Shown in pieces: positions 4,344 through 13,261 of a stretch of 43,096 nt of DNA; the first letter of the stretch is position 1, and each line of letters opens with the position of its first letter. A model generated the notes under the pieces. The model was not told the DNA's origin. It saw nothing but the letters and a program-made list of their open reading frames with translations, and did no database searches. Position numbers and translations under genes: made by a program. The DNA lies in sequence record PZ445463.1. One strand, 5' to 3'. This DNA comes from a phage.

Positions 4344-4370
4344 AAGGCCCCATTATGGGGCCTTAGTTTT
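4344..4370. terminator. Bidirectional terminator between convergent genes
   Basis: aaggcccca-tta-tggggcctt followed by agtttt. Confidence 0.5.
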
Positions 4371-4573
4371 CAACGGAATCTTGTGTTTAAATCCTGCTCA
4401 TGGACAACCCTCAGAACAGTGTCATAATCCCCGTATCTTCCAGGTTCAAATATATCTAATGCCTTGTAAGCAGACATTGCGTCAGGGAAAACCTGCAGAA
4501 CCTTTTTAACCCGGCACAAGTCACCGTCGAACTCTTCATCGAACTCTTGAACTACTTCGCAAATTGCATACAT
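4370..4573 (-). CDS. Hypothetical 67 aa protein, reverse-strand moron in head module
   Basis: ORF with AGGAGGTG SD (revcomp of 4579-4586); own promoter 4601-4629 on - strand; convergent terminator hairpin 4347-4362. Confidence 0.6.
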   Translation of the reverse strand: MYAICEVVQEFDEEFDGDLCRVKKVLQVFPDAMSAYKALDIFEPGRYGDYDTVLRVVHEQDLNTRFR

Positions 4574-4696: not shown

Positions 4697-4947
4697 GACT
4701 TTTCACTAAAAATATGATAAGCTCCACCTGAGCTTGTGAAGTATGAACAAGCGACCGCGGCGCGGGCAGGTAACGGAGCGGGACGTAAGTCCTGAGTGCA
4801 GTTACGCTGACGCGTTCGGAAGGGCCATACTCTATTGCTTGTGTAAAAAGTAACTGGTTTACTGAGATTACGCCGTTTCTATGTTTAAATGATAAGGACT
4901 AGCGCCCCGCTTTATGGCGGGGCTTTACTTATCGAGAAAGGGGAAAC

Positions 4948-5334
4948 ATGAATCTTAAAGCAACTGTCGTAGCAGGAGCATGTTTCATCATCCTGGTTTA
5001 CGCACACGGCATCTACCAGTATCGCAGCGGATGGAACGAAGGCCGGGCTAATCTCGTTTCGCAGCAACAGCAGAAAGCACAGGCTGAGTTAGCGAAGAAA
5101 ACACAACGGCAGCAGCAGGATGAATCGAAGGCCGCCGCCGCTGACAACGAAGGCAAGACGAAATCAGAGGTGATTACCCGTGAAGTCGTTAAGTACATTA
5201 AAACGCCTGGTCGCAGCGTGTGCACTTTTGACCCTGAGCGCGTGCAGCTCAAGTCCCGCGCCGTCGCCAACGCCAATTCCATCCCCGGATACGACGATGA
5301 TGCAGCCGCCGTGCAAACTGGCGCAGCCAAGTAG
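4948..5334 (+). CDS. Rz-like inner-membrane spanin (i-spanin)
   Basis: N-terminal TM segment ATVVAGACFIILVYAHGI followed by Q/A/K-rich coiled-coil-like periplasmic domain; overlapping +1 frame lipoprotein ORF. Confidence 0.6.
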   Translation: MNLKATVVAGACFIILVYAHGIYQYRSGWNEGRANLVSQQQQKAQAELAKKTQRQQQDESKAAAADNEGKTKSEVITREVVKYIKTPGRSVCTFDPERVQLKSRAVANANSIPGYDDDAAAVQTGAAK

Positions 5335-11481: not shown

Positions 11482-11507
11482 AAGGCCCCGAAAGGGGCCT
11501 TTTTTAT
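11482..11507. terminator. Bidirectional rho-independent terminator closing major tail gene and reverse-strand island
   Basis: aaggcccc-gaaa-ggggcctt then tttttatt. Confidence 0.65.
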
Positions 11508-11737
11508 TACTCATCAATGTTACTCCTGTACTCCCGTAACTTTTCCAGACTTTCAATTGCTTCCGCTAAGTCGGTTCCGGTGTCCTTGTGTCCACGTAAA
11601 CCCATGCACAATAGCTTCTTCAATGCGTGCTGTAACGCCGGGTCGCGGATGTCGAAAGCGCGGAGCACATCATAAACGTCTACTGTCATAGTGCTGCCGT
11701 GAGTATTTGTCATTGTGCGGTTGTATTTTGAAGTCAT
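11507..11737 (-). CDS. Hypothetical 76 aa protein (third gene of reverse-strand island)
   Basis: ATGA-coupled to upstream metallophosphoesterase gene; stop lies in terminator T-tract. Confidence 0.55.
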   Translation of the reverse strand: MTSKYNRTMTNTHGSTMTVDVYDVLRAFDIRDPALQHALKKLLCMGLRGHKDTGTDLAEAIESLEKLREYRSNIDE

Positions 11738-12864
11738 CCCAGCATCTCCGGTGAAATAGTTAAACGTGCGACCTCGCCATATTCGGCGCTATAAGTAATT
11801 ACGTTTGCGCTACGCCCAGACATCCATCCGCCGCGCGAGGCGTAGGCGTCTTTCGCCGCTAAGGTGCGGTGTTGCTCAACAATCATGTTACGGCTTTCTA
11901 CAATCTTCTGGTGGTGCAGATGGCCTACGTGGGCGTAGCTGTAAACACTCTCGCCGAACGCTTTACGGAACTTGGCAATCATAACCGGTTCGATAGCGTC
12001 GAATCGTGCTTTATGCCCGTGATGGAAGAACAGCGTCGTTTTGCCGTGTTGCACCATCTTATAAACATCCGGCGACGTATCGACGAATACACGAGGCTCG
12101 TTGTCGTACAGTGTGCTGAACATCTCCGCCAGCCAAATCATTCCGCTTTCGTCGTGGTTCCCTTGCACTATAAGCAAGCGAACATTTTTATGCTTAACCA
12201 GTGCCATATCTACAACACGGCGCACCATACGAATCATGTAGCGAACAAGTTTTTGGTAGCGAGTGTCCGCGTCAAGGGCGTGACCGCTTGCTGGCGTAAC
12301 GGCAACCAGACTATCGAAGTGCGCGAAGTCACCTAACAGGTTAATAACTCCAGTTCCTGCATCCGGTGCTTTCTGAAACGCCGCGTCGAACCAGCGGGAG
12401 AACAGGTCTTCCGCAATCTTCATGTCCCAGTCGTCGCCGCTCTCGTCGGCCCAGGCCAGCATACCGAGATGAAAATCAGATACCGTGTAAAGATTGAGTA
12501 GCTTGCCGTCGCGTTTGGCGCGTGCTGCTTTAACAGGGGCGACTGGTGTAATCTCTGATTTCATTCCTTCGATTACGGCTTTCATCAACTCGACCTGACG
12601 TTCGGCATCGGTGTCTGTCTTAACCCATTGCAACTTAGTGTTGCCGAACTCGTCCACAAGTGACGACGTTCCTTTAATCTTGTAGCCATCTGGCACAAGG
12701 TGACTAACGTCACGTCCGTGGCCTACGCCTTTCTTAGCCAGCTTCGCTTTACGGATACGAATAACGCGGTCTGAGATGCCGTATTTACGGGCGATGTCTA
12801 CATTCTTCATCCCGGCGTTCAATTCTTCCTGTAACTGTTCGTCGGTTATTTTCTTCTGGGCCAT
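11734..12864 (-). CDS. HTH domain fused to Mre11/SbcD-like calcineurin-type metallophosphoesterase
   Basis: N-terminal HTH-like DIARKYGISDRVIRIRKAKL; metallophosphatase motifs in canonical order: SDFHLG (D-x-H), LLGDFAHFD (GD-x-x-D), VQGNHDE (GNHD/E), FHHGH, VGHLHH (GH-x-H). Confidence 0.7.
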   Translation of the reverse strand: MAQKKITDEQLQEELNAGMKNVDIARKYGISDRVIRIRKAKLAKKGVGHGRDVSHLVPDGYKIKGTSSLVDEFGNTKLQWVKTDTDAERQVELMKAVIEGMKSEITPVAPVKAARAKRDGKLLNLYTVSDFHLGMLAWADESGDDWDMKIAEDLFSRWFDAAFQKAPDAGTGVINLLGDFAHFDSLVAVTPASGHALDADTRYQKLVRYMIRMVRRVVDMALVKHKNVRLLIVQGNHDESGMIWLAEMFSTLYDNEPRVFVDTSPDVYKMVQHGKTTLFFHHGHKARFDAIEPVMIAKFRKAFGESVYSYAHVGHLHHQKIVESRNMIVEQHRTLAAKDAYASRGGWMSGRSANVITYSAEYGEVARLTISPEMLG

Positions 12865-12903
12865 GCTTTACTTCCTCGTGTTTAGGATTTGTCCTATACT
12901 AGC

Positions 12904-13095
12904 TCACTTCTCGTTAACATTCGAGTTGCAGGCCCAGATTAAAATAAATACCCACGGCAGCAGAACCCAACCAAGAAACAGATTAGCCATGAATATCGCT
13001 AATTTCGCTTTATGGTTGCGGAAGTATGCAACCAAGAAAGGTGCGAAATAGGCGAGCAGTGCAAACAGAATTAAGGAAACTGGTAAACTTGACAT
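12904..13095 (-). CDS. Small two-helix membrane protein (63 aa)
   Basis: Hydrophobic segments LPVSLILFALLAYFAPFLVAYF and IFMANLFLGWVLLPWVFILIWA; start set at second ATG (13095) with AAGGGG SD; first gene after promoter 13126-13154. Confidence 0.55.
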   Translation of the reverse strand: MSSLPVSLILFALLAYFAPFLVAYFRNHKAKLAIFMANLFLGWVLLPWVFILIWACNSNVNEK

Positions 13096-13125
13096 TTTAA
13101 ACCCCTTCATTGTTGGTGTAAGCGA

Positions 13126-13154
13126 ATAGTACCCTATTATATTGGGGTGTGCAA
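13126..13154 (-). promoter_or_regulatory. sigma70-like promoter TTGCAC-N17-TACTAT (exact copy of 4601-4629)
   Basis: Identical 31-mer; positioned upstream of reverse-strand island genes. Confidence 0.55.
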
Positions 13155-13261
13155 GTAATGTGATAGAATAATTTTGCGCCTAGTGTCGCACACGAAAAGC
13201 GGGTGGTTCCCGTCTGGCGCGTCAATCTTAACCTGTAACCTCTTAACCAAAGGATTAAAGA

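Follow-up and report, generated by a model that had tools for sequence, protein, structure and literature searches.

A reverse-strand island in the tail module of Escherichia phage Bas74 and its HTH-fused metallophosphoesterase, a candidate DNA-processing enzyme

The late genes of the phage sequence PZ445463.1 (43,096 nucleotides; "the window" below means this whole stretch) are interrupted, between the gene for the tail tube protein and those for the tail assembly chaperones, by an island of three genes read from the opposite strand. One question raised by this locus is what the island contributes to the phage and, in particular, what is done by its central product, a protein of 376 amino acids (aa) in which an N-terminal helix-turn-helix (HTH) segment precedes a metallophosphoesterase. 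The window corresponds to the complete genome of Escherichia phage SonjaBuckley_Bas74 (PQ850627.1, 43,096 bp, 100% identity), rotated by 538 bases with respect to that record. Bas74 is a Kagunavirus of the subfamily Guernseyvirinae and belongs to the second BASEL collection, in the description of which the island genes are not discussed (PMC11990801). The phage, the three genes and the labels of the enzyme and of the Imm-type protein encoded beside it are already public, and the enzyme family is catalogued as PHROG 704, where its name, 'DNA repair exonuclease', is a predicted label.

The reading that we prefer, and on which our judgement is evenly poised, is that the enzyme is a stand-alone Mn-dependent DNA nuclease or 3'-end-processing enzyme, because its fold is that of a nuclease clade, because a DNA-binding-type domain and an invariant GDxxH histidine are conserved in it and because of the genes to which it is linked. 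We infer that the enzyme acts on DNA and that its HTH binds DNA, and likewise an early timing and the physiological role. An earlier inspection of the letters alone (the sequence-only reading) had held the function not to be predictable from sequence; this was too pessimistic, since gene linkage and fold point to a DNA substrate. The question extends well beyond Bas74, for this is one of the most widespread phage enzyme families. Its members share the same architecture (HTH, hairpin, metallophosphoesterase), keep the active site intact and evolve under very strong purifying selection, and the only partners that recur beside their genes are enzymes that heal and seal DNA ends. A clear functional result would settle how thousands of phage genes should be annotated and might reveal a Rad50-independent Mre11-like nuclease or a phage route of DNA repair or counter-defence. 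Bas74 is suited to deletion and complementation, the BASEL collection having been built for systematic study of phage and host and the gene lying in a dispensable slot.

The enzyme family, its active site and its nearest relatives

The open reading frames (ORFs) and the families of the flanking genes, a tail tube gene (PF18906, E=5e-37) on one side and two tail assembly chaperone ORFs (PF08748, PF23812) on the other, confirm the arrangement first read from the letters, that of three reverse-strand genes between the major tail protein and tail chaperone genes (Table 1). The start of the 76-aa gene and the stop of the enzyme gene overlap by 4 nt. Against Kagunavirus relatives, the ratio of nonsynonymous to synonymous substitution rates (dN/dS) comes to 0.010 in the 76-aa gene, 0.024 in the enzyme gene and 0.030 in the Imm gene, compared with 0.058 in the tail tube gene, and because of these low values all three island genes can be taken as real and under strong purifying selection.

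The enzyme matches PHROG 704 over its full length (E=1.1e-166, residues 3-375 against profile positions 1-389 of 390). Homologues were found by tblastn (E<=1e-5) in 2,042 of 50,697 phage records, the match extending over 80% or more of the query in 1,957 of these, and the family occurs in about 4% of sequenced phage genomes. An exhaustive profile search returned 6,580 representatives of 50%-identity clusters, 2,755 of which scored E<=1e-30, nearly all of these proteins being 370-400 aa long and matching end to end. The hosts of the gene include Kagunavirus, Jerseyvirus, Dhillonvirus (75% identity) and T1-like Drexlerviridae (about 45%), as well as phages of Vibrio, Rhodobacter, Rhizobium, Proteus, Erwinia and Campylobacter; the Bas74 protein is 98% identical to K1ind2 gp21 and 46% identical to its counterpart in T1, the gene product ST16. 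No structural difference from the Bas74 enzyme is apparent in its PHROG 704 relatives (T1 ST16, K1G/K1ind ORF19, SETP3/Jersey, Dhillonvirus and Vibrio phages). The slot that the island fills is accessory, as shown below, but its enzyme is no exotic gene: it belongs to a very large family whose members elsewhere lie among DNA-metabolism genes or close to lysis genes, and it is fixed within Kagunavirus.

The five metallophosphoesterase motifs follow one another in canonical order, as had been noticed from the sequence: I, DxH (D130, H132); II, GDxxH (D179, H182); III, GNHD (N236, H237); IV, H282; and V, GHxH (H315, H317). Among 10 diverse homologues and in a set of 125, D130, H132, D179, N236, H237, H282 and H317 are invariant and H315 is nearly so. 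H182 (GDFAH), presumably the counterpart of the motif II histidine (GDLFH) that we take to be an Mre11-specific signature, is invariant in the 125 homologues. The AlphaFold2 model, with a predicted local distance difference test score (pLDDT) of 89.2, consists of a three-helix N-terminus (8-44), a beta-hairpin (61-85), a helix (87-102) and the catalytic domain (119-376), the last being predicted as a four-layer alpha/beta sandwich of the kind found in the calcineurin-like superfamily.

The fusion of an HTH-like segment to the N-terminal side of the enzyme, likewise proposed from the letters alone, agrees with the model and with a set of concordant weak matches. The modelled helices span residues 8-16, 21-28 and 32-44 with a pLDDT of about 90; Pfam GerE (E=0.026), NCBIfam FixJ (E=0.003) and the GerE structure 1fse (E=0.099, with a 125-sequence profile) all match weakly, and precomputed matches in homologues are to GerE, Sigma70_r4_2, HTH_30, HTH_50, HTH_1 and HTH_8. 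A single-sequence model of the N-terminal 110 residues was confident for the HTH only, and its Foldseek search placed LuxR/NarL/FixJ-type HTH domains first but gave no significant E-values, all being at E>=0.75. When solved structures were searched by sequence, with the single protein and with the 125-sequence profile, nothing beyond the marginal GerE HTH match was returned. Between the HTH and the catalytic domain lies the hairpin and helix module, in which W80 is invariant and G65, S67, V81 and K82 are nearly so; homologues from Campylobacter phages (CP81) are without the HTH and keep the hairpin module and the enzyme domain.

The nearest structural neighbours of the model belong to the nuclease clade of DP1, Mre11 and SbcD, the top three all being DNA nucleases. 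The name 'Mre11/SbcD-like' given in the sequence-only reading therefore holds for the fold and for the fold only, since the enzyme has no partner ATPase, no capping domain and no sequence-level match to these proteins. With Mre11/SbcD chains of 319-362 residues it shares 13-17% identity over 184-190 aligned residues; these proteins possess a capping domain and C-terminal helices that bind Rad50/SbcC, whereas the Bas74 enzyme, in its model, ends with strands of the core fold at residue 376 and carries, unlike them, the N-terminal HTH and the beta-hairpin/helix module. The expectation that no SbcC/Rad50 partner is present was borne out, no such gene being found among the 81 annotated genes of the complete Bas74 genome, and no Rad50/SbcC-like ATPase gene lies beside the enzyme homologues examined. 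With DP1, the small subunit of PolD (the archaeal 3'-5' proofreading exonuclease), and with the B-subunits of eukaryotic polymerases, the identity is 12%. The Bas74 annotation contains no DP2-like gene, and a DP1-type OB fold is not established for the hairpin and helix at 61-102. A role as a proofreading subunit of a polymerase is unlikely because the Bas74 polymerase, according to the genome annotation, is an ordinary family A enzyme and because phage T1, which has the enzyme, has no annotated DNA polymerase.

Two stand-alone enzymes offer parallels. The metallophosphoesterase MPE of Pseudomonas putida (PDB 6nvo), cited in one public annotation of an orthologue of the Bas74 enzyme, is a Mn-dependent endonuclease for single-stranded DNA, encoded in an Lhr-MPE-ligase-exonuclease repair cluster that parallels the cassette of enzyme, PNKP, kinase and ligase described below. 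For gp48 of mycobacteriophage A10ZJ24, also a stand-alone metallophosphoesterase with five motifs, phosphodiesterase activity is reported, together with early damage to host genomic DNA that blunts defence-gene expression, the gene being non-essential on one host (PMC12287305); this is a precedent for a phage enzyme of this superfamily that attacks the DNA of its host. No HTH is described in gp48, which probably belongs to a different family; in the tblastn summary for the Bas74 enzyme (E<=1e-5), the ten commonest organism names do not include Mycobacterium.

As a separate observation, several T1-like phages in BFVD (Salmonella phage 36, Klebsiella phage KpV79, phage phiJLA23 and Jk06) carry the enzyme as separate fragments of 100-190 aa, which suggests either genes split by insertions, HNH homing endonucleases being frequent neighbours, or artefacts of annotation or frameshift.

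The slot and the company that the enzyme keeps

The variable presence of the enzyme gene at this locus was surveyed with the tube protein as query, which yielded 80 IMG/VR loci, 74 of them holding both the tube and the chaperone genes. In 40 of these 74 the enzyme gene lies between the two, and in 34 it is absent, the shortest gaps measuring 93-138 bp. Neither Salmonella phage FSL SP-031 (Cornellvirus) nor Serratia phage Eta has a homologue of the enzyme, of Imm or of the 76-aa protein anywhere in its complete genome, as judged by tblastn and by searching all six frames with the family profile; the same locus holds one unrelated small reverse-strand ORF in each, and the Eta record annotates a bidirectional terminator and divergent promoters there. 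Because the 74 loci are variably occupied and two genomes are wholly without the enzyme, the interval between tube and chaperone genes is a conserved site for accessory genes, and the life cycle that these phages share does not depend on the enzyme. The 34 loci without it and the two genomes likewise show that it is not a core gene, either of the tail module or of the Guernseyvirinae.

Within Kagunavirus the picture is different in that all 30 loci with a tube identity of at least 88% contain the enzyme, and what varies is the cargo downstream of its gene and, partly, Imm. As annotated relatives show, such cargo gathers in a hotspot that reaches from the enzyme gene to the tube terminator: the 76-aa gene alone in Bas74 and phage 26, a HAD_PNKP phosphatase and a P-loop kinase in K1ind2 and fTaEco01, and HNH homing endonucleases, Rha/KilAC antirepressor-like genes or small ORFs in others. 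The island had been described as an accessory moron cassette, and the accessory part of this description stands with the variable filling of the slot; a moron in the classical sense, expressed from a prophage to the benefit of the lysogen, is not what is seen, the island having no match in 5,426 complete E. coli genomes. In Bas74 itself no integrase or repressor gene is annotated, and one product bears the name 'excisionase and transcriptional regulator'.

The enzyme gene is exchanged horizontally (L049-L053, L120 and L136-L140 versus L029-L031; L036-L045). Between the same flanks, Jerseyviruses have either an 88-89% or a 49-55% allele, the Kagunavirus locus L120 (tube identity 90%) has a 61% allele together with an HNH gene of the Ent1 type, and the Bas74 protein is more similar to the alleles of Dhillonvirus (75-76%) than to some of those of Jerseyviruses.

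Elsewhere the gene is found in quite different company. It lies downstream of helicase and Dam methylase genes and before the lysis genes in T1-like phages, after the lysis genes at the genome end in Dhillonvirus, and beside SSB in Vibrio phages, and because its contexts differ in this way between lineages the enzyme is expected to work autonomously. In three podovirus-like IMG/VR contigs, which have a T7-type connector and a family A polymerase, it forms part of a co-oriented run of genes (L057 4479-9252, L077 997-4389, L090 4491-9200) in the order exonuclease, endonuclease VII, HTH-metallophosphoesterase, HAD_PNKP phosphatase, P-loop protein resembling deoxynucleoside monophosphate (dNMP) kinases, and ATP-dependent DNA ligase (PF01068 and DNA_ligase_OB_2; PHROG 114). 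The enzymes of these contigs represent three divergent lineages with 48-52% identity to the Bas74 protein, and the run may be a cassette for the healing and sealing of DNA ends. The pair of phosphatase and kinase genes also follows the enzyme gene in many Kagunaviruses. A census of three genes on each side in 25 lineages sharing less than 80% identity gave PNK-type phosphatase (5), dNMP-kinase-like protein (4), DNA ligase (3) and endolysin (3) as the most frequent neighbouring families. That the enzyme must always work together with the PNKP phosphatase and kinase was rejected, since in T1 their genes are about 35 kb from that of the enzyme and Bas74, Dhillonvirus and others do not have them beside it; the linkage stands as a recurrent association.

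What the enzyme may do

We envisage that the slot of Guernseyvirinae-type siphoviruses would be bounded by a bidirectional terminator on one side and by divergent promoters on the other, and that in Bas74 its three functional genes would form an autonomous operon on the minus strand, which the host RNA polymerase probably transcribes independently of the late genes. The product of the first gene would most likely be an inner-membrane protein of the T4 Imm type that blocks DNA entry of superinfecting phages, that of the second an active binuclear (Mn2+-type) metallophosphoesterase tethered to DNA by its N-terminal LuxR-type HTH, and that of the third the conserved small protein of 76 aa. The enzyme would hydrolyse phosphodiester bonds of DNA, in end resection or 3'-end cleaning and possibly in the breakdown of host DNA, and would act without an ATPase of the Rad50/SbcC type. 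Its linkage in other phages with a PNKP-type 3'-phosphatase, a P-loop (d)NMP/polynucleotide kinase and an ATP-dependent ligase suggests a pathway in which ends are processed, healed and sealed, or else one of nucleotide salvage, and of these proteins Bas74 would retain the enzyme alone. A more specific proposal, which we offer tentatively and hold to be unlikely in its entirety, is that the whole HTH-metallophosphoesterase family acts as a Rad50-independent DNA-end nuclease or 3'-phosphodiesterase in a phage pathway for breaks, a 'process, heal and seal' pathway with a split PNKP (HAD 3'-phosphatase and P-loop kinase) and an ATP-dependent ligase, serving either survival of host defence nucleases or the recycling of host DNA, Bas74 having the minimal enzyme-only version. 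Such a pathway is not known to have been described.

Several observations weigh against a DNA nuclease or 3'-end-processing enzyme. A profile search had been suggested as a check, and the full-length PHROG 704 match is offset by Pfam scores below the gathering thresholds, 18.9 bits against 21.5 for Metallophos (PF00149) and 21.4 against 27 for Metallophos_2 (PF12850); the Bas74 enzyme is too divergent for these two models, the second of which has a precomputed match in one close relative. Neither the single sequence (E<=10) nor the 125-sequence profile (E<=1) retrieved a chain of Mre11, SbcD or DP1 from the PDB. The lines of evidence for the HTH, although concordant, are each non-significant. 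The linkage to PNKP, kinase and ligase genes holds in only about 5 of the 25 lineages, and is absent from T1, in which these genes lie elsewhere, and from Bas74. In the literature searched, no experimental study of any PHROG 704 member was found, and in the PUA-Cal-HAD defence system a metallophosphoesterase paired with a HAD phosphatase can have free nucleotides, and not DNA, as its substrate (10.64898/2026.01.15.699771). The phage essentiality screens searched mention neither the PHROG 704 family nor these phage groups, and a search of the literature on a phosphoesterase of Drexlerviridae, T1 or SECphi phages, on host DNA degradation by T1 and on early-gene transcriptomes returned nothing relevant.

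What, then, of other substrates? The enzyme might act on small nucleotides, as a phosphodiesterase or pyrophosphatase destroying immune signals (the cyclic oligonucleotides of CBASS, Pycsar, Thoeris or type III CRISPR) or reshaping the (d)NTP pools, with the HTH present only for autoregulation or localisation, a view that we consider distinctly unlikely given that the best three structural neighbours cleave DNA, that an HTH of the DNA-binding type is conserved across thousands of members and that the genes linked to the enzyme encode DNA ligase, exonuclease, endonuclease VII and SSB; nor did the literature searched yield an anti-signal phage enzyme with this fold, and none is known to use it. 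That the enzyme has a PNKP-type HAD phosphatase and a P-loop kinase encoded next to it, both in Kagunaviruses and in three lineages remote from them, also invites comparison with RNA repair. In bacterial Pnkp, for example that of Clostridium thermocellum, a calcineurin-type phosphoesterase domain heals RNA 3' ends, and by analogy with this domain, or with the role of T4 Pnkp/Rnl1, the enzyme could be the 2',3'-cyclic phosphodiesterase or 3'-phosphatase arm of RNA (tRNA) repair against anticodon nucleases, Bas74 having lost the kinase-phosphatase partners. This we regard as improbable: the ligase of the cassette is a DNA ligase and not an RNA ligase, the HAD 3'-phosphatase is already there and would render the enzyme redundant for the healing of ends, the enzyme is retained under strong selection without the partners (Bas74, T1, Dhillonvirus), and the HTH is a module for binding DNA, not RNA.

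The smallest probability is assigned to the enzyme being mainly a transcription regulator that works through its HTH on the divergent promoters of the slot or on host genes, the phosphoesterase domain being a sensor or irrelevant, or alternatively a protein phosphatase resembling that of lambda. The LuxR/GerE/FixJ-like N-terminus, which weakly matches a PHROG named 'late transcriptional activator', and the NCBI name of many orthologues, 'winged helix-turn-helix domain-containing protein', are in keeping with regulation, as is the triple GGTTA repeat, unique in the window, among the divergent promoters next to the gene; the invariant active site, however, tells against regulation as the sole role.

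The small genes and the boundaries of the island

Table 1. Features of the island and its borders, in window positions
Feature	Position	Strand	Basis
Bidirectional terminator-like hairpin	11482-11501	both	scores as intrinsic terminator on each strand
76-aa gene, last gene of the island	11507-11737	-	ORF list
376-aa HTH-metallophosphoesterase gene	11734-12864	-	ORF list; GenBank XPK43186.1, labelled 'DNA repair exonuclease'
Metallophosphoesterase catalytic domain, residues 119-376	11737-12510	-	invariant columns and fold match
Beta-hairpin (61-85) and helix (87-102) between HTH and catalytic domain	12559-12684	-	alignments and model
Three-helix HTH, LuxR/GerE/FixJ-like, residues 8-44 (putative)	12733-12843	-	several weak profile and model signals
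Imm-family gene	12904-13095 (63 aa); ORF to upstream ATG 13110 (68 aa)	-	ORF list; PF14373
Sigma-70-like promoter candidate	13126-13154	-	TTGCAC (13154-13149), 17-nt spacer, TACTAT (13131-13126)
Small conserved hairpin CGGG-AACCA-CCCG then CTTTTC, just upstream of the island promoter	13194-13213	-	changes that look paired when relatives are compared
Three direct GGTTA repeats, GGTTAAGAGGTTACAGGTTA, in the divergent intergenic region shortly before the start of the chaperone gene	13229-13248	-	

The suggestion that a small membrane protein of the island serves superinfection exclusion is supported by its family. The 63-aa protein, which has two hydrophobic segments in its sequence, belongs to Imm_superinfect (PF14373, E=9.3e-13, 48.3 bits against a gathering threshold of 27.9) and matches PHROG 1039, 'immunity to superinfection' (E=1.1e-22). 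Compared with T4 Imm it is shorter and is encoded in the tail module of a siphovirus; the likeness is a family match and the function a predicted one. Of its two possible starts the second ATG, at 13095, is preceded by a Shine-Dalgarno-like AAGGGG, and relatives annotate 63 aa. An Imm gene was detected in 28 of the 74 related loci (tblastn E<=1e-5, with at least half of the query aligned).

The 76-aa protein matches the C-terminal 70 or so residues of PHROG 2452 (E=2.4e-36) and also PHROG 17613, and is widespread, occurring in 768 phage records with the conserved motif KY.R..G..DVY.VL.A...PA.QHA.KK.L..G.RGHK; searches of Pfam and NCBIfam gave no match. It was considered as a remnant of the P-loop kinase gene of the K1-type relatives and rejected as such, as it has no similarity to the P-loop protein of K1ind2 and is a widespread independent gene under strong selection. 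Its domain is fused to others elsewhere, forming the C-terminal part of Escherichia phage CAjan gp40 (L101 1674-2243), which lies within a gene cluster for 7-deazaguanine (queuosine-like) DNA modification, and the N-terminal part of Shigella phage Sd1 gp68 (L100 2498-2833). By eye alone, it resembles DUF3310.

At the downstream border, the bidirectional terminator claimed in the sequence-only reading is recovered as a hairpin with an 8-bp stem, six of the pairs being GC, followed by a T-run on the + strand and by a weaker T-rich tail on the - strand; it is predicted to close both the tail tube gene and the reverse-strand island. Bidirectional terminators are annotated at the same position in Serratia phage Eta and Salmonella phage Ent1.

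The claim that the island has a promoter of its own draws its support from conservation and not from score. The TTGCAC/TACTAT element matches 8 of 12 consensus positions, below the threshold of the promoter scan, which reported instead an overlapping and higher-scoring ATCACA-17-TATAAT (13164-13136) that varies among relatives; in 32 distinct related intergenic sequences, distant relatives included, TTGCA is invariant and the position of TAnTAT is conserved, and it is from this conservation alone that the element is proposed as the island promoter. The triple GGTTA pattern occurs once in the window, with 0 expected by chance, is kept in relatives with an extra copy in L130, and is possibly the binding site of a regulator. 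The hairpin at 13194-13213 was rejected as a structured RNA or insulating terminator, as its folding is no better than that of shuffled sequence (z = -1.1). The 37-aa ORF Bas74_0024 of the GenBank record (13137-13250, - strand), which overlaps the conserved promoter and hairpin region, is probably non-coding and not a fourth island gene, having a dN/dS of 0.68 and a TTG start.

Finally, the late module had been described as lying wholly on the + strand except for this island, which is incorrect, as a second reverse-strand ORF of 67 aa is found at 4370-4573 (record 4908-5111, Bas74_0006), between the genes for head decoration and spanin. The corresponding position is taken by a PAPS-reductase-like gene in FSL SP-031 and by a 110-aa ORF in Serratia phage Eta, and the site looks like a second accessory slot.

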